Below, in pieces: positions 14,131-27,079 of a DNA stretch of 32,000 nt. A program made the translations under genes and the position numbers. Source of the DNA: Acaryochloris marina MBIC11017 (lineage in GTDB: Bacteria > Cyanobacteriota > Cyanobacteriia > Thermosynechococcales > Thermosynechococcaceae); assembly GCF_000018105.1 (NCBI RefSeq), contig NC_009925.1, positions 1-32,000 on the forward strand, read 5' to 3'. The first letter of the stretch is position 1. The number at the start of each line of letters is the position of its first letter. Under the pieces are notes generated by a model. The model was not told the DNA's origin and made no database searches. It saw only the letters and a program-made list of their open reading frames with translations.

Positions 14131-16395
14131 TTAATTCTGCACATCCACAATGGGCGACGTAGATGGTGCTAGAAAGGAAAAATTAGGGTTCATGGGCTGT
14201 TGTTGAACAAACCATTGAGGTCCAGCCTGAAGATGTTCTTCTAACTTCTCCTGACTCATGGGTGGAGAGAACCAATATCCTTGTCCCCGTTCGCAACCCA
14301 ATTTCTTTAAGTGTAAAACTTCTTCTTCTGTTTCAATTCCTTCGGCAATTACATCCATATTTAAGGTGCGGGCCAGAGAAATAATGGTATTCACAATCTC
14401 AGCATCTTTCGGTTCGGAGATCATCCGACTCACAAAAGATTGATCAATCTTGAGGGTATCTAAGGGAAATCGGTAAAGGTAGCTCAAAGACGAATACCCC
14501 GTCCCAAAGTCATCCAGGCTGATGGTTATGCTGCGATCGCGCAGTTGCTGCAGCGTCTTTATATGCTTCTCTTCATGGGACATCAGCATACTTTCAGTGA
14601 GTTCAAGCTTTAAATATCGTCCGTCTAACCCGGACTGAGATAAAACCCGATCCACAGTTTGGATAAAGTTAGGATCTTGCAGTTGTTCACTGGATAAATT
14701 GACGCTAAATTTCAACTCCGTTGCAGAGGCAAACTGTTGTTGATAATCTCGTAGAGTCTGGCAGGCTTCCTGAAGTACCCACTGACCAATTTCTACGATT
14801 AGCCCCGTCTCTTCTGCTAAGGGGATAAATTCCGATGGCATCACTAATCCCCGATCCGGATGTTGCCACCTAACCAAGACCTCAACATCCGTAAGGTCTC
14901 CTGACTGCAGGTCAATGATCGGCTGGTAATACAGCACAAATTCTTGTCGATCAACCGCAGACCGCAGATCTCGTTCAAGTTTGAGCAGGCTAAGGGTCTG
15001 GGCATGCATCTCTGGGCTGAATACTACAAAACAACCTTTCCCTAAGGATTTAGCACGATACATGGCAATATCTGCATCCCGCAATAATAAGGTTGGATCG
15101 TCATACTGCACCGAGTTGTAAGCGATTCCGATACTGGATCCCGTAAAGACACTATGTTCTCCCACCTGAAAGGGCGATTTTAAGGTTTCCAGGATGCGTT
15201 CTGCCACATGGATCGCATCCTCTATGCCTTGAATACCATCCAGGAGAATGGTAAATTCATCTCCCCCAAGACGGGCCACGGTATCAGAGGTGCGCACACA
15301 GTTTTCTAACAGATGTGCGATCGCAACTAGCAATTGGTCACCGACAATATGTCCCAAACTGTCGTTGATAATCTTAAATCGGTCCAGATCAATAAACAGC
15401 AGCGCAAATTGATAATCGGACGTGCGATGCTGGCGCTTCAAGGACTGAGAAATGCGCTCCATCATCAAATTACGGTTTGGTAGTCCCGTTAATTCATCAT
15501 GAAAGGCATCGTGGATTAATTGAGCTTGAGCCCGTTTTTGCTCCGTAATATCGTAAATAATTCCATCTAGGCGGTGGGGACGTCCTTGATCACCCGTGAT
15601 CACATGGCCTCGATTTTTCAGCCACCTAATTTCTCCATCGGGCCGCAATATTCGATATTCAATATTAAGGGAACCGGCAACGAGCAATTGATCAAAGAAA
15701 TGGATCATTTGATGACGATCCGCAGGATGAACCACCTCTAGCCATAAATCAGGATTACTGAGGAATGACGACACCGGATAGCCATGAACCGCTTCTGCTG
15801 CTGGGTTCAAATACAACAGTTGAAACTCTTCAACGGCTGCTGACCACACCACATCATCCAATGAATTGAGAATGCTTTCTAAACGGGTTTCACTCTCCTG
15901 CAGCTTCTGCTGTACGAGCTGACGTTCATCGATTTCCCCCTGTAATTGAGCATTCATCGCTCGCAGGGTTCTATTCTGGCCAATTAGCTGTTCATCTTGT
16001 AGGTGACTCCTTAAAGCCGCCTTTACCGTTAAACCTAAATCAGTTTCATCCCAAGGTTTAGCGATGTAACGATATAAATTGGCAGAATTAACCGCGTTAA
16101 TGACCGCATCTAAATTCGCCTCCCCAGTTAACAGAATTTTTCGGGTTTTGGGGTACTGAATCTGTAAATAACTGAGAAGAGAATCCCCCCCCATATCCGG
16201 TAAATTCTGATCACAAATAACCAAGGGGATCGGAATTTGATCCGCCTCTAATTCTGTAAATAGTTCGAGGGCCTCACCACCGCTTTCTGCCACCTCAATT
16301 TCATAACTATCGTCGATAATTCGCTGCAATTGATCTCTCAGAGTATTCAAAATCAATCGGTCATCATCAATGCAAATGATCGTGCCTTTGCTCAC
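14131..16395 (-). CDS. Response regulator receiver-PAS-GGDEF-EAL protein (c-di-GMP turnover)
   Basis: REC (IICIDDD...LVICDQNLPDMGG...KP), PAS, RLGGDEFTILL, and EAL-type EVLVRWQHP / ELTES / DDFGTGYSS. Confidence 0.9.
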   Translation of the reverse strand: MSKGTIICIDDDRLILNTLRDQLQRIIDDSYEIEVAESGGEALELFTELEADQIPIPLVICDQNLPDMGGDSLLSYLQIQYPKTRKILLTGEANLDAVINAVNSANLYRYIAKPWDETDLGLTVKAALRSHLQDEQLIGQNRTLRAMNAQLQGEIDERQLVQQKLQESETRLESILNSLDDVVWSAAVEEFQLLYLNPAAEAVHGYPVSSFLSNPDLWLEVVHPADRHQMIHFFDQLLVAGSLNIEYRILRPDGEIRWLKNRGHVITGDQGRPHRLDGIIYDITEQKRAQAQLIHDAFHDELTGLPNRNLMMERISQSLKRQHRTSDYQFALLFIDLDRFKIINDSLGHIVGDQLLVAIAHLLENCVRTSDTVARLGGDEFTILLDGIQGIEDAIHVAERILETLKSPFQVGEHSVFTGSSIGIAYNSVQYDDPTLLLRDADIAMYRAKSLGKGCFVVFSPEMHAQTLSLLKLERDLRSAVDRQEFVLYYQPIIDLQSGDLTDVEVLVRWQHPDRGLVMPSEFIPLAEETGLIVEIGQWVLQEACQTLRDYQQQFASATELKFSVNLSSEQLQDPNFIQTVDRVLSQSGLDGRYLKLELTESMLMSHEEKHIKTLQQLRDRSITISLDDFGTGYSSLSYLYRFPLDTLKIDQSFVSRMISEPKDAEIVNTIISLARTLNMDVIAEGIETEEEVLHLKKLGCERGQGYWFSPPMSQEKLEEHLQAGPQWFVQQQPMNPNFSFLAPSTSPIVDVQN

Positions 16396-16488
16396 CGTTG
16401 CTCCACCATTGTCGCTGTCGTCACTTTGGGCACATTCCGTTCAAATACAATGAGGATTAACCTGATATTCAAGCACATTTTCAACTGA

Positions 16489-18816
16489 TTAGCTCACCTC
16501 AAGGGGTAACCAGACCTCAAACCTAGTATGCCCTGGCTGACTCTGACATTCGACCTTCCCTTGGTGTTTATCGACAATTTTACGGACGATATCTAGTCCC
16601 AAACCACTCCCTTCGCCAGCAGGTTTTGTCGTGAAAAAGGGATCAAAGATCTTGGCTTGCACATCCTCAGGAATACCACTGCCTGAATCCGTAAAGCTGA
16701 CCAGAATCCCCTGCTGCTCCTGGCCAATGGTTAATTGAATGTGGCCTTTGTAATCCATAGCCTGCATGGCATTGTGCAGCAGATTCGTCCACACCTGAGC
16801 CAGTTCTTCTGGATAGCACAGAATATCTGGGACATCCTCAAAGTCTTTAGTCAAGTCGATACCGTGTTTAATCTGGTTATGGTACAAGGTCAGAACCGTC
16901 TCTACCGTGTCTGTAACTGACGCTTTGACTTTCTCGTTACTCAGATCTTGGCGAGCATAGCTCTTCAGAGCAAACACAATTTTGGCTGCCCGTCCTACAG
17001 CCAAGCGGATATTCTGAGTGTTGTTATGTATGACCGTCAAATCATAGGCAACATCCAGAACTTCGGTATTGTTCGGCAACTCCAGAATGGGTAGAAACGA
17101 CGAAAGATCAGCAGAGACCCCCATCTTACTAAGGGTACTAGCCATATCATTGGCAGGCTCTAAGCTTTTCTCTGCCAGGATTTTCTTCAAACTTCGTTTC
17201 AGCTTACGCTCCTCGCGGGAGGTTAACAGCTCCTGTTGCTGAGCCATCGCCAATAACTCAAAAAATGCGTCGGTTTGTTCTGGCTGTAATTGATCCAGGA
17301 TTTTGGGGAGCTGCTGCATGGACTTCTCTAGAGAAGATGCAATATTTTCTCCGGCAGCTTGAATCGCCCCCAAGGGCGTATTGATTTCATGGGCAACCCC
17401 TGCGGTGAGTTGGCCTAACGCCACCATTTTTTCAGATTGAACCAGTTCCTGGGTTCGCTGTTGAACCTCCTGTTCTAGAGACCGGTTATATTCTGCTAAC
17501 TGTTGTTCACTCTTTTTGAGTGCCTCTACCACCACATTTCGTTCTTCCAAGGAGATGCGCAGATCTTGAACCATTTGATTAAACGATCGTGCTAATTCTC
17601 CTAACTCATCCGAGCGGTTGAGAGCAACACTTCGCTGCAAATCTCCTGAAGAGATAGCCGTAGCAGCAGCGTTGATTTTCAAGATGGGATTCGTCACCCA
17701 CCGGGCGGTAGACACCCCAATGAGGATCGCAAATAGCAGCGCAGCAACCGATAGCCCAATGGTTGAGCGGGTATTGGCATAAATTTGTTCCATAAAGTCT
17801 GCTTCTGGAACAACAACCACACTGAGCCAATCTAAACCATGCTGATCTCGAAGGGGATTCACCTGGAGAAAATAACGCTTGCCCTCAATATCGATGGTGA
17901 GCTGTTGGCGAACCGAAATCTCCTGCAAAGTCCCAAACCGATCCAATAATGTTTGAGTGGTTGCCCGGACAACGGGATCTTTGCTTTCCAGGGCTGGTAA
18001 ACGCTGTGGACCTTTCTCGGAAGGCGTAAAGGGCTCCTCGGCCGTAGAAGTAGCAACCATTAATCCTGAGCGCTCCAGGATAAAACTCTTGCCTGTTTTA
18101 CCAATCTTGAGGGTTTGCAGAAAATCGCTAAACTGAGCAATCGATAGATCCGTTGCTAAGATACCTTGAAAGGTTCCGGACTGATCATAATAAGGTTGCC
18201 CTAAGGTAATGGCTAAAGTCGGAGGGTTAACCCAAGCATAAATATCGGTCCAAGTCGGCTTATCTTTTTTTTCGGGAATTAAATACCAAGGACGTTTTTG
18301 GGGTTCAAAATTAGGAGATGTTTCTAATTTTTTCCCCCGCTGTCCATTTTGTTTAATGGCATAGGTTTGTAAATCCCCAGAATACTCCGTTACCTGATAA
18401 GTAAAACTACCATCATCATTCGCTGCCAGCCCGACAAATTCTCCTTTGGGCGTCCCAAACTGAATATAGCTAATCCGATCAAATACCTGGATCTGTCGCC
18501 AAAAATGGCGTTCCATACTGTTGAGGTTATCGGCGCTCAGCTGCCCGAGTTCTAAAGCATTCTGATTAAGCTGGTTAACGGCATGGGGAGCAGCCAAATA
18601 GGTTTGGGTCCGCTCAGCAATATGGACTTCCACTTCATCTGTCAGCTGCTGAGCCAGGGATTCAATTGATCGTTGACCATTCTGAAATGATAAATAACCG
18701 ACCAGACCAACTGCACCGCAAACCTGCAATACAAAAGGTACAACCAGGACCGTTCTGAGCTTGTGGCGACGAGCGAGTTTTCCAGGGAAGGATCGCAGCG
18801 TTTGAATAAACATCAA
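16489..18816 (-). CDS. Sensor histidine kinase (TM-Cache-like-TM-HAMP-HisKA-HATPase)
   Basis: Two TM segments flank a roughly 300-aa periplasmic domain. HAMP (SDELGELARSFNQM), H-box GVAHEINTPL, and N/G boxes (NLLHNA, DSGSGI, GSGLGL). Confidence 0.9.
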   Translation of the reverse strand: MMFIQTLRSFPGKLARRHKLRTVLVVPFVLQVCGAVGLVGYLSFQNGQRSIESLAQQLTDEVEVHIAERTQTYLAAPHAVNQLNQNALELGQLSADNLNSMERHFWRQIQVFDRISYIQFGTPKGEFVGLAANDDGSFTYQVTEYSGDLQTYAIKQNGQRGKKLETSPNFEPQKRPWYLIPEKKDKPTWTDIYAWVNPPTLAITLGQPYYDQSGTFQGILATDLSIAQFSDFLQTLKIGKTGKSFILERSGLMVATSTAEEPFTPSEKGPQRLPALESKDPVVRATTQTLLDRFGTLQEISVRQQLTIDIEGKRYFLQVNPLRDQHGLDWLSVVVVPEADFMEQIYANTRSTIGLSVAALLFAILIGVSTARWVTNPILKINAAATAISSGDLQRSVALNRSDELGELARSFNQMVQDLRISLEERNVVVEALKKSEQQLAEYNRSLEQEVQQRTQELVQSEKMVALGQLTAGVAHEINTPLGAIQAAGENIASSLEKSMQQLPKILDQLQPEQTDAFFELLAMAQQQELLTSREERKLKRSLKKILAEKSLEPANDMASTLSKMGVSADLSSFLPILELPNNTEVLDVAYDLTVIHNNTQNIRLAVGRAAKIVFALKSYARQDLSNEKVKASVTDTVETVLTLYHNQIKHGIDLTKDFEDVPDILCYPEELAQVWTNLLHNAMQAMDYKGHIQLTIGQEQQGILVSFTDSGSGIPEDVQAKIFDPFFTTKPAGEGSGLGLDIVRKIVDKHQGKVECQSQPGHTRFEVWLPLEVS

Positions 18817-19436: not shown

Positions 19437-20334
19437 GAGGCTGTTTGAGAAGTGAGTAAAGCTCTCAAGGTACTAATCTGTCAATACACAAACACTGGAC
19501 AGGACCTAGAGAGCAATGCCTACAGCATATGATAGCGACCTCACCACCCTGCAATGGGAATTACTTGAGCCTTTGATTCCTGCCGCTAAACCTGGAGGTA
19601 GACCTCGCACCACTGATATGCTCAGTGTTCTCAATGCCATTTTTTATCTTGTGGTTACGGGTTGTCAGTGGAGACAACTACCCCATGATTTTCCCTGTTG
19701 GTCAACGGTCTATAGCTATTTTCGAAGGTGGCGCGATGATGGGACTTGGGTCCACATCAATGAACATCTGCGCATGCAAGAGCGGGTGAGTGAAGACCGT
19801 CATCCAAGTCCCAGTGCCGCCATCTGCGATGCTCAATCGGTTAAAGTCGGCAATCCTCGGTGTCACTCGATTGGGTTTGATGGTGGGAAAATGGTCAAAG
19901 GTCGTAAACGTCATGTGCTCGTTGATACTTTAGGGCTGGTTTTGATGGTGATGGTCACTGCTGCCAATATCTCTGACCAACGAGGGGCCAAAATACTGTT
20001 TTGGAAAGCTCGACGCCAAGGTGCGAGTTTGTCCCGTCTAGTTCGCATATGGGCCGATGCTGGCTATCAAGGACAAGCTTTGATGAAGTGGGTAATGGAC
20101 CGTTTTCAATATGTCTTGGAAGTAGTCAAACGCTCAGATAATCTTGCGGGGTTTCAGGTTGTTTCCAAACGATGGATTGTAGAACGGACGTTTGGATGGT
20201 TGTTGTGGTCTCGACGTCTTAATAAAGATTATGAGGTGCTGACCAGAACAGCTGAAGCGCTCGCATATGTGGCGATGATTCGACTCATGGTTCGAAGGCT
20301 AGCGCAGGAGCACTAAAACTTCTCAAACAGCCTC
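19437..20334 (+). mobile_element. IS5-family insertion sequence, intact
   Basis: Perfect 17-bp terminal inverted repeats GAGGCTGTTTGAGAAGT (19437-19453) and ACTTCTCAAACAGCCTC (20318-20334). A 3-bp direct duplication TCA flanks them (19434-19436 and 20335-20337). It contains a single transposase ORF. Confidence 0.85.
19516..20316 (+). CDS. IS5-family DDE transposase
   Basis: N-terminal LTTLQWELLEPLIP...GRPR...CQWRQLP and the DDE region (DAQSVK, WADAGYQG, WIVERTFGWL). Confidence 0.9.
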   Translation: MPTAYDSDLTTLQWELLEPLIPAAKPGGRPRTTDMLSVLNAIFYLVVTGCQWRQLPHDFPCWSTVYSYFRRWRDDGTWVHINEHLRMQERVSEDRHPSPSAAICDAQSVKVGNPRCHSIGFDGGKMVKGRKRHVLVDTLGLVLMVMVTAANISDQRGAKILFWKARRQGASLSRLVRIWADAGYQGQALMKWVMDRFQYVLEVVKRSDNLAGFQVVSKRWIVERTFGWLLWSRRLNKDYEVLTRTAEALAYVAMIRLMVRRLAQEH

Positions 20335-21928: not shown

Positions 21929-22396
21929 TTACTTGATTGACCTGAGTTTGCGAGATAGCACAGCCGCCGATCCCATCCCGCCAGAGAGAACTATTGCCAC
22001 AAGGGGAATTTGAGGAGACTGGTGCTGAGGGACTTCGCTAATCTCGTTTATATTGATTCCCTTCGGGGTCACTGGCACCGTCAAAATATCTTGATGACCC
22101 GATTCGCCAATGCTAACTTCCCATTCTCCCGGCATTTTTTCGCTGGTATCAAAGGTAAACTGGCCATTTTCATCCGTTTCGGTCTCCATCACTGGCTCAG
22201 TCAAATTGTCAGGGGAATAGATTTTGACTTTGGCCTTTTTATGGGGTTCACCTGTACTAAATACAGCCGTAAACTGAACCTTATTCACTTCTTCTAAGAC
22301 ATAGTTCGTCTCCAGGGCATGGGCCATCACACGAACAGGAACTCCCAGTACAGCCAACAACAGAAGCGGCATTAATACTTTAGATTTCATCTGCAT
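21929..22396 (-). CDS. Small secreted beta-rich protein with C-terminal membrane anchor (hypothetical)
   Basis: Signal peptide MKSKVLMPLLLLAVLGVPVRVMA/HALE, a beta-sandwich-like core (KVKIYSPD...ETDENGQFTF), and a C-terminal hydrophobic segment with a basic tail. Confidence 0.55.
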   Translation of the reverse strand: MQMKSKVLMPLLLLAVLGVPVRVMAHALETNYVLEEVNKVQFTAVFSTGEPHKKAKVKIYSPDNLTEPVMETETDENGQFTFDTSEKMPGEWEVSIGESGHQDILTVPVTPKGININEISEVPQHQSPQIPLVAIVLSGGMGSAAVLSRKLRSIK

Positions 22397-22536: not shown

Positions 22537-25500
22537 CTAATCCCGACTCCAGACTTTAATGGCACTATTTTTACTGCTACTGACCAAAGACTGACCATCA
22601 GCGGCAAAAGCCAAGGAATAAATATCACCTTGGTAACCTGTAAGGGTATGACGCAAGGCCCCCGTAGAAAGATTCCAGAGTTTAACCGTCCGATCTAAAC
22701 TCCCTGTTGCCAATGTATTCCCATCGGGACTAAAGGTCACCGCGGTCACCGGCTTGGTATGTTCCTGAATGGTTCGATTTAATTTTCCAGATTTCAGATC
22801 CCAGAGCTTCACGGTCTTATCCTGACTGGCACTGGCTAACCGCTGGCTGGAAGGTCCAAAGGCAATGGAAATCACCCGACCCGTATGTCCCTTAAATGTC
22901 CGAAGGAGTTTGCCCGTCTTCAGCTCCCATAACTTCACCGTCTTATCGCTGCTGGCACTGGCAATCATTTGACCATTCGAACTAATAGCCACGGATCGCA
23001 CTTGTCCTGAATGGCCCTTGAGGGTGCGGACGAGCTTGCCCGTTTTGATATTCCACACTTTTAGGGTTCGATCTTCACTCCCACTGACCAGCAATGTACC
23101 GTCAGGGCTGATGGCTACAGACCATACAGTCATCGGATGGGCCGCAAAGGTTCTCAGCAGCTTCCCGGTTGGTACATCCCAGAGTTTAATCGTGCAATCC
23201 CCACTAGCACTGGCTAAGATTTTGCCTTTGGGGCCTAGGGCAATCGTCCAAACCTGATCTTTGTGATCTGACAGAGTACGGATGAGCTGGCCTTTCCCTA
23301 AGTTCCACAACTTAATATCGTTTTGGTCACCACTGCCAATCAAGGTCTTGCCATCTGGGCTGAGGGCAACGGACCAAATCGCCTGTTTCGGGGCATTCGA
23401 CAAGGTTTTTAATTGAGCATTCTTCCAGTTGATACCCGCTTGGCATTGGGAAAATAGTTTCTGAGCAGAGGGATAGAGTCGAGAATCTTTGGGAATATTT
23501 TGAGTCTGGGCAATACAGTTGTCATAGCGTTTCTGCTGGGCCAGGGATTGCCAAAACTCCATCTGCTGTGCCTCTTTCTGCCGCTGTTGCGCCTCTTGTT
23601 GTTGACGCAGAACAGACATTAGTAGCAGAAGTGCGATCGCACCCGCCCCCGCAAACCACCATACCCGCTTGGGCACCGACTGCACCTGACGCCAAGACAC
23701 GGAAGACAGGTTCACCCGATATCGAGCATTCCGTACAGACTGACTCACGGTCATAGACAGATTTTGCCCCAGAGAAGTCAGGCGCTGAGCTGAGGTCTTC
23801 AGGGTCTGTTGCCCAACCCCCAAAGCCTGATGGAGCGGCTGAATCACCGTTTGATTTGACCAGGTTGTACTAGGTACCGCTCGTCTCGGCGGTTCAGGGG
23901 CTTGACCAGGAAATTGGATCACCTGAACCTGACGAATAATCGCTGATTCAACCGGAATCGTATCTGCATCCGTTAACCCTAAGGTGGCTTGAAACTGCCG
24001 AAACTGATCCTGTAAATAATCACTGACCGGATATTCTTGGCGCACAGCCTCCACAAAGGCCATGGCATATTCTTGCAGTTTAGTCTGATAGGCTTTACCC
24101 GGTTTACTCACCTCCGCCTCAATTATCTTGGCCATCTCTATATCCAGATCAAGGCTGGACTGGAGATTATCCAAAATCACCCGATTGACCGGCGATACCT
24201 CACCACGACCCGCATAGAATTCGAACTGACGGCGATAGACAAATTGGGGTTCATCGATGGCAGCTTGAGCCAAAGCTAAATTCTGCACCGCCTTGACATT
24301 ATAAATTTGCGGTTCAATCGCTGGAATCTCTTGTTTGACCTTTCGCTTCCCATAGGCATACCATTCCTCCACCGAAATACTGCCGTCACAATTTTGATCT
24401 GCAGCCCCGGTTCTTAACCCTTCCACTAAGTAAAATGTGTAAAGGGATAGATCAGCCCCCTTATGCACAAATGCATGGCGAGCCTGAGTCGCTGAGGTCA
24501 TAATCGTCCGCCCCAACCCCCCTAAATATTGAGGGAGATTCACCCCCCCTAGATGGGGATTATTAGCAGAGGTGTCAGTTTGTCGATAGCAGCAATCTAG
24601 AACTACAACCTGTCGTTCTGCCTTACTATCATTCAAAATATCTTGGAGCAGATCGGCTGAAACAAGGGTTGACCGCACCACTTTACCTTTTGAGTTGGTG
24701 CGGCTCATACTAGTGGTTAACCCAAACCGGCCATGATCATCCAGCACCACCCCATGACCAGAAAAATAGACTACGAGCAAATCATCAATATCTCGATCTT
24801 GGCAAAAGCTTTCTAGGGATTCTGCCAAAATCTGGGGATTGGGGTTCAGTAGGGTTTGGACCTCATCAAAGGCAGCGATTTTGGGGTTCTCTAGGACTTG
24901 CTTCATAACCGCAATATCCTGCTGAACCCCTGGCAATGGTTCAAATCCATGCTCACAATGACTGACCCCAATCAACAGGGCATTCTTAGTCGTGGGTACC
25001 CGAGTCATCGAGTCTAAGGTAATTCTCGGAGACTCTAGCAAACGCTCTAGAGAAGACAAAAGGGGCTGATTATCCACGTCTGGTACGAGGGCATCAGCTG
25101 ATGTTTCTTGCGGCATTTGAGGATCATTCTCCTTGCCATTCGCCAACTCCGACTCGCCGGGAATAGCCACCGAGAAATTGAGTAGTTTACCTTTGTTGAG
25201 TAGCAAACGACATCGTGCCCGGGTACCAGACGGAATCATCACGCCGGGCAATGTCGGCTGCAAATCATCTATCTGGTCAATGACTACCCTATGGAGATCA
25301 GACGAAACCCTATGACGTTCAATAAACGTCACAGGACCTCTCTCCAAGCAGGCATAGATTGTATCCAAGAGGGGATTATCCAGGACCCCTGATAAACAAT
25401 AGGCAATAAAGTAGGGGATGTGACTTCGGCCTAAATCATCATCCCCTTGGTTATACATCCAGCCAAATAAGGTTAACTCAGGAGAGATTTGAGCAAGATA

Positions 25501-25671
25501 AGCCGCTCGATACCCTGGCTGAGGCGGCGCATAAGAATTCCAATATTTATAAACCACCTGGGTTAAAAAAACTTGCTTCACTTCCTCCGGGACATCAGCA
25601 CTACTGAGAGTCTGAAAGCCCTGATCAGGGAAGCTAGTGTAAACCAGTTGACCAAGATCTAGCGTTAGCAT
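22537..25671 (-). CDS. Multidomain protein: unknown N-terminal domain - caspase (peptidase C14) - EF-hand - helical linker - TM - 7x WD40
   Basis: Caspase His in VVYFSGHGV (H306) and Cys in VVVLDCCY (C360/361). EF-hand loop DQNCDGSISVEE (24364-24399). Hydrophobic VWWFAGAGAIALLLLMSVL (23608-23664). Seven WD40 units end in KLWN/KLWD/KVWN. Confidence 0.9.
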   Translation of the reverse strand: MLTLDLGQLVYTSFPDQGFQTLSSADVPEEVKQVFLTQVVYKYWNSYAPPQPGYRAAYLAQISPELTLFGWMYNQGDDDLGRSHIPYFIAYCLSGVLDNPLLDTIYACLERGPVTFIERHRVSSDLHRVVIDQIDDLQPTLPGVMIPSGTRARCRLLLNKGKLLNFSVAIPGESELANGKENDPQMPQETSADALVPDVDNQPLLSSLERLLESPRITLDSMTRVPTTKNALLIGVSHCEHGFEPLPGVQQDIAVMKQVLENPKIAAFDEVQTLLNPNPQILAESLESFCQDRDIDDLLVVYFSGHGVVLDDHGRFGLTTSMSRTNSKGKVVRSTLVSADLLQDILNDSKAERQVVVLDCCYRQTDTSANNPHLGGVNLPQYLGGLGRTIMTSATQARHAFVHKGADLSLYTFYLVEGLRTGAADQNCDGSISVEEWYAYGKRKVKQEIPAIEPQIYNVKAVQNLALAQAAIDEPQFVYRRQFEFYAGRGEVSPVNRVILDNLQSSLDLDIEMAKIIEAEVSKPGKAYQTKLQEYAMAFVEAVRQEYPVSDYLQDQFRQFQATLGLTDADTIPVESAIIRQVQVIQFPGQAPEPPRRAVPSTTWSNQTVIQPLHQALGVGQQTLKTSAQRLTSLGQNLSMTVSQSVRNARYRVNLSSVSWRQVQSVPKRVWWFAGAGAIALLLLMSVLRQQQEAQQRQKEAQQMEFWQSLAQQKRYDNCIAQTQNIPKDSRLYPSAQKLFSQCQAGINWKNAQLKTLSNAPKQAIWSVALSPDGKTLIGSGDQNDIKLWNLGKGQLIRTLSDHKDQVWTIALGPKGKILASASGDCTIKLWDVPTGKLLRTFAAHPMTVWSVAISPDGTLLVSGSEDRTLKVWNIKTGKLVRTLKGHSGQVRSVAISSNGQMIASASSDKTVKLWELKTGKLLRTFKGHTGRVISIAFGPSSQRLASASQDKTVKLWDLKSGKLNRTIQEHTKPVTAVTFSPDGNTLATGSLDRTVKLWNLSTGALRHTLTGYQGDIYSLAFAADGQSLVSSSKNSAIKVWSRD
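22540..23409 (-). repeat. Seven tandem WD40 coding repeats (about 126-bp period)
   Basis: aa 755-1044. The units are H..V.S[VI]A.SPDG..L.S.S.D.T[IV]K[LV]W. Confidence 0.85.
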
Positions 25672-25696
25672 CAGAAGGTCTTCCTAAAAAGTGAGA

Positions 25697-27079
25697 TTAA
25701 GGGCTAGGTTTAGACTGAGCCTTATCAGCCAACTTCCGAATTTCTTGCTTTAACTGATCCGTCGGCGCAGCAGCCTCAGCCTTACTATATAGGGCTTTTG
25801 CGGCCTTGTTATCCCCCTGTTCGCTTCGCAAGGTCGCTTTGCTGGTTAAAGCGAGTATGCTTTGTGGGTCTATTGTAAGGATTTTGTCATAGACCGTTTC
25901 TTCTTTCTGCTTGTTCCCGTTCAAGGCATATAGCCCAGCTAGTTCAAACAGAAAATCCGACTTCTCTGGCTGTTGCTCCACCAGCTTTTCCATCAGGGGT
26001 AGGGCTTTATCAAATTCTGTTAAATCTGAATAGAGCCGAGAGAGCTGTAGCAGAGCTTCAGGATCCGTCGGAGATTTTTCCAAAATCTCTTCGTATTGCT
26101 TAACCTTTTCACTCGGCGTTGAGTTTGCTTGTTCGGTAGACGAATTGCCTAACAGCCCCGTCCCAAATCCAATGGCCACCGCAACTCCGATGGCCAGCAG
26201 GCTGCCTATGGCTGCCACACCCCAGAGCTGCTTATTATTGGCAGTAGTTCCCCCTGCTCTAGCCCGAGAAGGGGATAAAGGTTGGGCACTATTATCTAAC
26301 AATCGGTTAAAACCACTAGCCAACGATTGGGGCTTACCTTTTCGATGAATTTTACTTAGCTCTGTCGCCAACCATAGCAACGGCGCAGAAGCCCCTTTTG
26401 CCTGCAGAACCGACATTTTTCCATTTTTAACGATGGGAATCGTAGAGTAAAATCTGCGGTATTGAATCTGATTCGCATCCAAACGGGCCATTAAAGGGCG
26501 GATATTTTCTTCTATTTTTAGTAATTTCTGGGGATTTTCCGCCAAAAGATCACATTTTGTCAGCACAATAGCAAAAATATAGGTCAAACCACTTTGTCGA
26601 GCCAGTGAGGCGATGGTTTCTACCTGTTTCACAATGCCTTGAAGCGTCTGGCTATAAGCAGAATTATTAAATAGCGTATAGGTATCAATAAAGACACAAC
26701 AACCATGGGAGTCCATCACCATTTTCTGGAAATTGGGATTGTCGTTGTTGCAGATTTCTCCTGGGATATCCCACCAGCGAAACTGACACAGATCCTTTTC
26801 ACCAAAAAGGTTTTGAGTTTTTGCGGCAAAATTAAAATTCGTTATTTTCATCGTTGCTGGCGGATATTGACCTGTTTGGGCAATATATTCCAGCAAGGTG
26901 TTCAGGTTATGTTGAACCTGGGTATCCTGACAGTCAAACCAGGTAGATGATTTTCGCGACCCACTATTCGCTTTTTGCTCAGCATAGCTACCCACTAAAA
27001 AGACAGTTTTACCCACACCCCGATGACCAATGCTGAGTAAGTTAAACGTCTGGGTTTTTGTTTTTGACGGAGCATTCAT
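25697..27079 (-). CDS. Small Ras/MglA-like GTPase domain - TM - TPR protein
   Basis: G1 GHRGVGKT (27005-27028), G3 WDIPGE and G4 TKCD. A hydrophobic segment LWGVAAIGSLLAIGVAVAIGFGTGLL (26150-26227) is preceded by RARAGG. C-terminal TPR-like repeats lie at about 25760-26107. The stop is 25 nt upstream of the caspase-WD40 start. Confidence 0.8.
   Translation of the reverse strand: MNAPSKTKTQTFNLLSIGHRGVGKTVFLVGSYAEQKANSGSRKSSTWFDCQDTQVQHNLNTLLEYIAQTGQYPPATMKITNFNFAAKTQNLFGEKDLCQFRWWDIPGEICNNDNPNFQKMVMDSHGCCVFIDTYTLFNNSAYSQTLQGIVKQVETIASLARQSGLTYIFAIVLTKCDLLAENPQKLLKIEENIRPLMARLDANQIQYRRFYSTIPIVKNGKMSVLQAKGASAPLLWLATELSKIHRKGKPQSLASGFNRLLDNSAQPLSPSRARAGGTTANNKQLWGVAAIGSLLAIGVAVAIGFGTGLLGNSSTEQANSTPSEKVKQYEEILEKSPTDPEALLQLSRLYSDLTEFDKALPLMEKLVEQQPEKSDFLFELAGLYALNGNKQKEETVYDKILTIDPQSILALTSKATLRSEQGDNKAAKALYSKAEAAAPTDQLKQEIRKLADKAQSKPSP

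Follow-up and report, generated by a model that had tools for sequence, protein, structure and literature searches.

Two adjacent genes on the minus strand of Acaryochloris marina MBIC11017, within the first 32,000 nucleotides of contig NC_009925.1 (the window), encode a 460-amino acid (a.a.), membrane-anchored guanosine triphosphatase (GTPase; gene 1, 25697..27079) and a 1044-a.a. partner protein (gene 2, 22537..25671), in which an N-terminal longin-like domain is followed by a caspase-like domain, a helical module, a transmembrane (TM) segment, and a WD40 propeller. Residues 1–170 of the partner (25162..25671, minus strand) form a distinct conserved domain that links the two genes, and that was overlooked in a first-pass annotation of this DNA made from the sequence alone. 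This domain defines a family of partner proteins, whose genes commonly adjoin those of the GTPase family in cyanobacteria and whose sequences have diverged together with it; functional pairing of the two genes is strongly supported. With a confidence that modestly exceeds an even chance, the pair is read here as a conserved two-protein membrane GTPase-longin switch across cyanobacteria, which in this genome carries a caspase-like output.

Linkage and Co-divergence of the Two Gene Families

Residues 1–170 of the partner are matched by no model in Pfam or NCBIfam. The gene that follows the orthologous GTPase encodes a 270-a.a. protein in Acaryochloris thomasi and a 586-a.a. TM-WD40 protein in Desmonostoc, and both of these partners start with this N-domain, which shows the motif GQLVYTSF...LFGWLYNDG.DD.GR..PYF. 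A search with the single N-domain sequence gave 3 proteins only; finding the family required a profile built from locus-derived sequences, with which 320 proteins were recovered. Within a library of 1.84 billion representatives, the N-domain occurs in 191 clusters (50% identity), 168 of which have E-values below 1e-30. The N-domain family is compact and sharply bounded.

For the GTPase, 438 homologues were found, and every named one is cyanobacterial. The GTPase domain of the window is 98–100% identical to that of Acaryochloris metagenome-assembled contigs and 80–85% identical to that of other Acaryochloris species, and the family is distributed from Gloeobacterales to Nostocales at 45–60% identity. 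A scan with the GTPase alignment, limited to one genome per species, gave 132 confirmed loci, the best 80 of which were kept. The 132 loci range from Gloeobacterales and Thermosynechococcus to Nostocales, the named ones are all cyanobacterial, and a genome often holds at least two of them. An N-domain gene is present within 7 kb of the GTPase gene in 56 of the 80 loci. Among 59 GTPase/partner pairs, the partner lies downstream on the same strand in 40, upstream on the same strand in 14, and on the opposite strand in 5, with a spacing that is mostly below 250 nt. A reverse test, starting from partner proteins, found an adjoining GTPase in three of four sampled loci. The distance matrices of the GTPase and the N-domain are correlated as well (Mantel r = 0.77, a value reached by 0 of 2000 permutations). 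In addition, Acaryochloris genomes carry two pairs each, and the split between these is equally deep in both genes (49 and 45% identity), indicating that the pair was duplicated as a unit.

The caspase-bearing form of the partner shows the same arrangement. Four distant caspase members have usable flanks (partner identity 42–46%): a gene for a GTPase with tetratricopeptide repeats (TPR) is directly upstream in L173 and L177, is visible in L172 as its TPR tail only, at the contig end, and is not found upstream in L175. Since the GTPase-TPR gene is upstream in three of four distant contigs, the GTPase/caspase-WD40 pairing is conserved well beyond close relatives. A metagenome scan with the N-domain and caspase alignment recovered the N-domain in 1 of 80 loci, on a contig too short for neighbours, and is uninformative on linkage because nearly all the relatives are caspase-only. 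Of these 80 closest caspase-domain relatives (L092–L171; 33–44% identity), 79 are without a longin-like domain or a nearby GTPase, and this caspase type is thus reused in many other architectures.

In the window, the two genes are separated by a 25-nt spacer (25672..25696) with an AGGAAG Shine-Dalgarno-like (ribosome-binding-site-like) motif. The terminator scan placed no terminator-like site in this spacer; the numbers of sites from the promoter and terminator scans were not above those in shuffled sequence. To judge from this layout, the two genes are probably co-transcribed. The functional pairing that the first-pass annotation had drawn from the tight spacing is borne out by the co-conservation described above, both in the 80 loci and in the distant caspase contigs.

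Two other kinds of neighbour were noted during the comparison of loci. In contigs of Merismopedia and Gloeocapsa, a divergent gene upstream of the partner gene codes for a GAF-domain protein (L090 3067..4656 and L091 3251..4885, both on the minus strand). Genes encoding Trypsin_2 and TPR domains are found near the pair in two unrelated cyanobacterial loci (L005 13099..15138 and L089 6090..7772, both minus), which may represent a recurrent association with a second protease.

Domain Content and Membrane Topology

The GTPase domain of gene 1 (a.a. 10–247; 26339..27052, minus strand as for all features of the pair) contains the G1 motif GHRGVGKT (27005..27028), the G3 motif DIPGE (26756..26770), and the G4 motif TKCD (26549..26560), each located in an alignment of homologues. 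Among 20 diverse homologues (50–85% identity), G18-HRGVGKT25, T76, and D104-IPG-E108 are all invariant; in the G4 motif (T174-K-C-D177), the T, C, and D are likewise invariant, while the K is sometimes a Q. The P-loop GxxxxGK[ST], the switch-I threonine (T76), DxxG, and [NT]KxD follow one another in the canonical order of the TRAFAC class. All scores against profile libraries are below their cut-offs: Pfam DO-GTPase2 (PF19993) gives 17.8 bits (gathering cut-off, GA, 27), Pfam GTP_EFTU 17.6 bits (cut-off 26.5), and NCBIfam small_GTP 16.5 bits (cut-off 42.5). There is no Ras, Roc, or Arf match in Pfam, and the MglA models of the profile libraries do not recognize the domain either. Several of the homologues score better against DO-GTPase2 than the window GTPase does. 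A full-length GTPase profile search against Protein Data Bank (PDB) sequences was swamped by TPR matches and was discarded. The AlphaFold2 (AF2) model, however, is a clear G domain (predicted local distance difference test, pLDDT, 81.6), and Foldseek matches it to the G domains of Ran, Rab, Ras, RagD, and EF-Tu (E ~1e-7, probability 1.0). The small GTPase fold is thereby confirmed. The first-pass label of a Ras/MglA-like small GTPase is right as to the G motifs and the fold, but a specific affinity to Ras or MglA is not confirmed. By its motif order and its modeled fold, the gene 1 product is classed as a small TRAFAC-type GTPase and is predicted to bind and hydrolyze GTP. The domain is followed by a TM segment (a.a. 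285–310; 26150..26227; Kyte-Doolittle peak 2.29) and a TPR domain (a.a. ~321–456; 25712..26119), in which Pfam TPR_17 (E 6.6e-14), TPR_16, and TPR_19 are all above their cut-offs.

According to its AF2 model (pLDDT 89.4), the N-domain of the partner has a beta-beta-alpha-beta-beta-beta-alpha order, which is the longin topology; the DSSP program assigns strands to residues 4–14, 18–24, 55–63, 66–74, and 86–94, and helices to residues 29–43 and 99–111. The best Foldseek match is TagF (PDB 9t0n; E 6.7e-3, probability 0.99, 126 aligned columns, 16% identity). Weak matches were also obtained to FNIP2 of the FLCN-FNIP2-Rag-Ragulator complex (E 0.035, probability 0.95), and to Nprl2 of GATOR1 and the corresponding subunit of the yeast SEA complex (E ~0.2, probability 0.8–0.9). 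Because these E-values are weak, the domain is named longin-like and is not taken as a proven longin. In eukaryotes, the longin fold forms platforms that act on small GTPases in a guanine nucleotide exchange factor (GEF) or GTPase-activating protein (GAP) role.

What follows the N-domain varies from partner to partner. The commonest C-terminus, which is typical of Nostocales, consists of a TM segment and a WD40 domain. Other partners have a TM segment with a periplasmic-type solute-binding domain (PBP_like_2 in five partners and Phosphonate-bd in one), a Roadblock/LC7 (MglB-type) domain with no TM segment, a short tail, or the caspase form; some match the SepF model. Most family partners are without an enzyme domain, being composed of longin-like, TM, and WD40 parts only. 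The Roadblock/LC7 domain is fused to the N-domain in 8 of 29 non-WD40 partners. These fusions connect the N-domain with GTPase regulation in a way that does not depend on the predicted fold. At locus L088, a soluble 260-a.a. GTPase is paired with a soluble partner that is annotated by the Joint Genome Institute as a Roadblock/LC7/MglB family protein, although its own Pfam record has no hit.

Among the 80 genome loci, the caspase domain was confined to five Acaryochloris orthologues. An interim view that the caspase insertion is Acaryochloris-specific was overturned, as a homologous caspase domain is present in 20 of the 150 best N-domain clusters of the representative library. In these 20 clusters, the order is N-domain, caspase, helical module, and TM segment, with WD40 repeats thereafter in about half. 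They are 35–46% identical to the window protein, and one of them is from Lyngbya confervoides. This caspase variant is an old subfamily. The helical module (a.a. ~507–578 in the window protein; 23938..24153) is common to caspase-free partners at loci L068, L080, L084, and L091 (phmmer E 1e-6 to 6e-8). Its pattern is K.YQ.KLQ.Y..AFV.A ... L..LQ..L.L...D, for which the libraries hold no model.

The caspase-like domain of the window protein (a.a. 229–447; 24331..24987) matches Pfam Peptidase_C14 (PF00656) with an E-value of 3.9e-14 and 53.3 bits, above the GA of 21.4, and matches the NCBIfam model caspase_w_EACC1 (NF047832) with an E-value of 5.8e-38 and 130.5 bits, slightly below the cut-off of 140. 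A PDB search by sequence found no close solved relative. The His/Cys dyad is intact, with His306 in FSGHG (codon at 24754..24756) and Cys360/Cys361 in LDCC (codons at 24589..24594), and the window protein could be an active protease. Within the caspase domain, the loop DQNCDGSISVEE (D425 to E436; 24364..24399) is a perfect fit to the canonical 12-residue calcium-binding pattern. The Pfam EF-hand_5 match to it is weak (E 0.04; cut-off 25.9 bits) and the loop falls within the region that the caspase family model covers; it is therefore described as an EF-hand-like loop and not as a demonstrated EF-hand domain. Further C-terminal are a TM segment (a.a. 670–688; 23608..23664; Kyte-Doolittle peak 2.13) and a WD40 propeller (a.a. 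751–1044; 22540..23421), for which Pfam reports seven stretches (E 2.2e-79). The first-pass annotation had correctly described both open reading frames (ORFs) and the gap between them, the TM segment and TPR repeats of the GTPase protein, and the catalytic dyad, TM segment, and seven-bladed propeller of its partner. The EF-hand that it had also listed is better described as an EF-hand-like loop.

Conservation within the caspase subfamily is uneven. The window protein and its five Acaryochloris orthologues all have both cysteines (6 of 6), and five of the six keep His306. The exception, L009 8398..11541 of Acaryochloris sp. CRU_2_0, has SGYG in place of SGHG, with the Cys-Cys pair retained, as does P0297 (77% identical). 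Such His-to-Tyr substitution recurs across the subfamily. Across 19 subfamily members, residue 306 is a histidine in 11 and a Y, Q, or F in 8, whereas a cysteine is kept at position 360 or 361 in all 19 and the loop residues D425, D429, G430, and E436 are invariant. With the catalytic histidine replaced in 8 of 19, proteolysis is not what the family conserves; the best-conserved traits of the subfamily are the loop and the fold rather than the dyad.

Both families show a consistent topology signal. In the GTPase family, 80 of 83 members have one hydrophobic segment after the GTPase domain, and lysine and arginine are richer on its N-terminal flank in 64 members and on its C-terminal flank in 6. 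Of 63 partners, 45 have a single TM segment after the N-domain, always before the WD40 or solute-binding domain, and its flanks are enriched in lysine and arginine N-terminally in 27 vs. C-terminally in 7. This bias, together with the periplasmic-type binding domains that follow the TM segment, fits an N-in, C-out orientation. On this prediction, the cytoplasm would hold the GTPase, longin-like, and caspase-like domains, with the TPR and WD40 domains in the periplasm or the thylakoid lumen.

The neighbours of the pair encode an RsmB/F methyltransferase, a PfkB kinase, a PIN-PhoH protein, a two-component system, and a GGDEF-EAL protein. This neighbourhood is syntenic among Acaryochloris contigs, apart from insertion sequence (IS) insertions, and all domains of the pair are similarly conserved among the Acaryochloris orthologues (59–90% identity), none being hypervariable. 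In the window and in the Acaryochloris contigs inspected, the pair is not located among defence genes, and PADLOC returned generic domain matches only, including a caspase model at E 1.5e-9. Several nearby features were recorded as well. A 155-a.a. ORF (21929..22396, minus) starts with a signal-peptide-like stretch and has a hydrophobic tail at its C-terminus. Its match to the NikL family of nickel/cobalt ECF transporter subunits is weak (E 1.3e-12, short of the cut-off), and in Acaryochloris contigs it is kept immediately downstream of the gene for the caspase-WD40 protein. An IS4/IS5-family DDE transposase gene (DUF4096 and DDE_Tnp_1; 19516..20316, plus) lies between the PIN-PhoH and response-regulator genes; it is missing at the equivalent site in Acaryochloris contigs L001 and L003, and in L002 another IS is found upstream of the GTPase gene. 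The genes at 14131..18816 (minus), downstream of the IS element in the window, encode a dCache-HAMP histidine kinase, a stand-alone receiver, and a receiver-PAS-GGDEF-EAL protein, and constitute a cyclic di-GMP signalling cluster.

A Proposed Switch and Its Alternatives

In the proposed mechanism, the first component would be a GTPase that is tethered by a single TM helix continuing into an extracytoplasmic TPR domain. The second component would bind the neighbouring GTPase through its longin-like domain, and would thereby set or read the nucleotide state, with the remainder of the protein acting as a variable sensor or output. The Acaryochloris partner adds a caspase-like domain of predicted cytoplasmic location (with its intact dyad and EF-hand-like loop), the helical module, a TM helix, and the seven-bladed WD40 propeller, predicted to be external. 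Ligand binding to the external WD40 and TPR domains, or their association, could alter how the longin-like domain and the GTPase meet in the cytoplasm. The GTP/GDP state that results, perhaps in concert with Ca2+, could in turn control the dimerization or the activity of the caspase-like domain, which would then cleave or scaffold a cytoplasmic target. From gene linkage and co-divergence, we infer a physical binding of the GTPase to the longin-like domain; the direction of signalling, the protease activity, and the substrate are put forward in the same conditional sense. A bolder version would make the pair an ancient phylum-wide device, with the longin partner as a dedicated GEF, GAP, or effector, and with an old subfamily that gates a Ca2+-sensitive caspase-like protease by an externally sensed ligand. 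This version is offered tentatively and is considered doubtful.

Several points weigh against a GTPase-longin switch with a caspase-like output. The longin assignment comes from a predicted structure and from Foldseek E-values of 0.007–0.2, none significant at 1e-3, and no action on a GTPase is known for the best match, TagF. Most WD40 propellers are found in the cytoplasm, and the predicted outside location is drawn from the charge bias and from analogy with the solute-binding-domain variants. The replacement of the histidine in 8 of 19 subfamily members, L009 included, means that the caspase-like domain may be no protease, and no substrate candidate was identified for it. A constant core with a variable module is also typical of conflict systems. 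Finally, a partner gene is missing within 7 kb in 24 of the 80 GTPase loci, and the partners in L091 and L175 have no adjoining GTPase, so that linkage is strong but not obligatory; the 24 partnerless loci have no alternative conserved neighbour, just local synteny among close relatives. These unpaired loci could be taken to mean that the adjacency is incidental and that the two proteins are not functionally coupled. Set against an association that spans the phylum in 56 of 80 loci, occurs in either gene order, persists through paralogue duplications, is accompanied by correlated distance matrices, and amounts to a 25-nt spacing in the window, incidental adjacency is very improbable.

Two other explanations concern what the caspase-like domain does. 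The first-pass annotation had placed the pair with the conflict or programmed-death systems that were predicted from comparative genomics (Kaur et al., 2020). On that account, the GTPase would be a threshold switch, the WD40 propeller would sense an invader molecule, and an active caspase would execute abortive infection or altruistic death, much as apoptosomes, Avs proteins, and the systems of Kaur et al. combine NTPase, caspase, and WD40 parts. The GTPase and N-domain do form an unchanging core to which differing C-terminal modules are joined, several paralogous pairs occur per genome, and the caspase, with its intact dyad and its PADLOC match, is closest to the EACC1-associated type (130.5 bits), of which one member was shown in a 2025 preprint to activate a pore-forming toxin in phage defence (PMC12642450). 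However, GTPase-centric systems of the Kaur et al. kind are nearly absent from cyanobacteria (PMC7159879), the DO-GTPase2 score is below its cut-off, no GAP1, GASH, FNIII, or EACC1 gene was found, and the PADLOC matches are generic. Nor do the housekeeping and syntenic neighbours, the phylum-wide presence at 45–60% identity (Gloeobacterales included), the lack of a hypervariable domain, the loss of the histidine in 8 of 19, or the scarcity of enzymatic effectors among family members suit a conflict system. The assignment is not upheld, and a role in conflict or programmed death is judged unlikely. Alternatively, the caspase-like domain could be a non-catalytic Ca2+-binding or dimerization scaffold in a genuine GTPase-longin module that serves the organization of the envelope or thylakoid membrane. 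The invariance of the loop residues next to a residue 306 that is histidine in only 11 of 19 members would fit such a scaffold, as would the SGYG of L009 and P0297, and most partners in the wider family consist of longin-like, TM, and WD40 parts, some with a SepF match. It is at odds with the histidine kept by the window protein and four of the five other Acaryochloris orthologues, with both cysteines kept in all six, and with the cysteine at position 360 or 361 in 19 of 19, a constancy that one would not expect if the domain were structural only; a scaffold is regarded as unlikely but as a variant to be taken seriously. A GTPase-longin switch with a caspase-like output remains the preferred reading.

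A conserved membrane GTPase-longin pair would be a new prokaryotic switch with readable modules, namely WD40, periplasmic binding, Roadblock, and caspase domains. If the bolder version is true, it would present a bacterial GTPase-longin pair that bears on how the longin-type GTPase regulators of eukaryotes arose, as well as the first GTPase-controlled prokaryotic caspase. The caspase subfamily offers a concrete case for the regulation of bacterial caspase homologues, a question open since the cyanobacterial orthocaspases were catalogued. The result also advises against classing every NTPase-caspase-WD40 neighbourhood as a defence or suicide system.

Comparison with Known Systems

As far as the literature searches reach, the gene pair is undescribed, and curated domain libraries do not contain it. 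The searches found no directly relevant characterized member and no orthocaspase-GTPase link, which is consistent with the first-pass remark that no GTPase-caspase pair has been characterized. The survey of Wuichet and Sogaard-Andersen (PMC4316618) covers the MglA and Rup families, and mentions neither WD40 nor TPR domains.

The DO-GTPase systems consist of a DO-GTPase, GAP1, and GASH or FNIII, and the DO-GTPase/GAP1 systems are described as "nearly completely absent in cyanobacteria" (Kaur et al., 2020; eLife, PMC7159879); neither longin nor Roadblock is mentioned in that paper. The window pair resembles these systems in that DO-GTPase2 is the best Pfam match of its GTPase, in the order of a GTPase gene and then a partner gene that is constant except for its varying C-terminal modules, and in its membrane association. 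It differs from them in that its GTPase is below the PF19993 cut-off and that it lacks a GAP1, GASH, or FNIII component, as a Pfam search of the partner and the neighbouring genes found no match to GAP1 (GAP1-N1/N2, M, C), GASH, or FNIII. Furthermore, the window family is vertically conserved and is not found in mobile neighbourhoods.

EACC1-caspase systems, two-gene membrane systems (Kaur et al., 2020), require a small upstream EACC1 gene. In the one tested case, reported in a 2025 preprint (bioRxiv, 10.1101/2025.11.14.688446; PMC12642450), the caspase cleaves EACC1 and releases a pore-former in phage defence. The window pair has a caspase that comes close to the EACC1-associated type (NF047832, just below the cut-off), and shares with these systems a two-gene layout and a TM segment and variable C-termini on the caspase protein. 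Unlike the N-terminal caspase of those systems, the caspase here is internal and follows the longin-like domain; the upstream gene encodes a GTPase, and the downstream ORF is NikL-like. No EACC1 match was obtained in the pair or in the flanking ORFs on both sides with Pfam and NCBIfam, libraries whose content for an EACC1 model was unchecked.

Gene 2 also resembles the cyanobacterial orthocaspases or metacaspases, which combine a Peptidase_C14 p20-type domain with WD40 repeats (Jiang et al., 2010; BMC Genomics, PMC2853523). That survey lists a "cbMC-beta, WD40(7)" protein for A. marina MBIC11017, which may be the window orthologue, and reports His-to-Tyr variants. It makes no mention of an N-terminal domain, a TM segment, or a GTPase neighbour, and no function was tested there.

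TagF, a type VI secretion regulator, is the best structural match of the N-domain, but its genomic context differs, as it is found in type VI secretion system clusters; to our knowledge, it has no associated GTPase. The likeness is broader to MglA-MglB, Rag-Ragulator, FLCN-FNIP, and GATOR1, each of which joins a small G-domain protein to a partner with a longin or Roadblock fold. Some paralogous partners carry Pfam Roadblock/LC7, and the N-domain model matches FNIP2 and Nprl2. Unlike these systems, the window GTPase is not recognized by Ras, MglA, or Arf models, the window partner has no Roadblock domain, both window proteins are single-pass membrane proteins with predicted external repeat domains, and a GAP or GEF role for the partner is presumed. 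MglA-MglB is the established example of a bacterial small GTPase with a longin or Roadblock platform, and in eukaryotes, membrane traffic and nutrient signalling depend centrally on small GTPases with such platforms. The window pair is a variant of this theme of a small GTPase plus a longin/Roadblock partner, here fused to an orthocaspase-WD40 protein.

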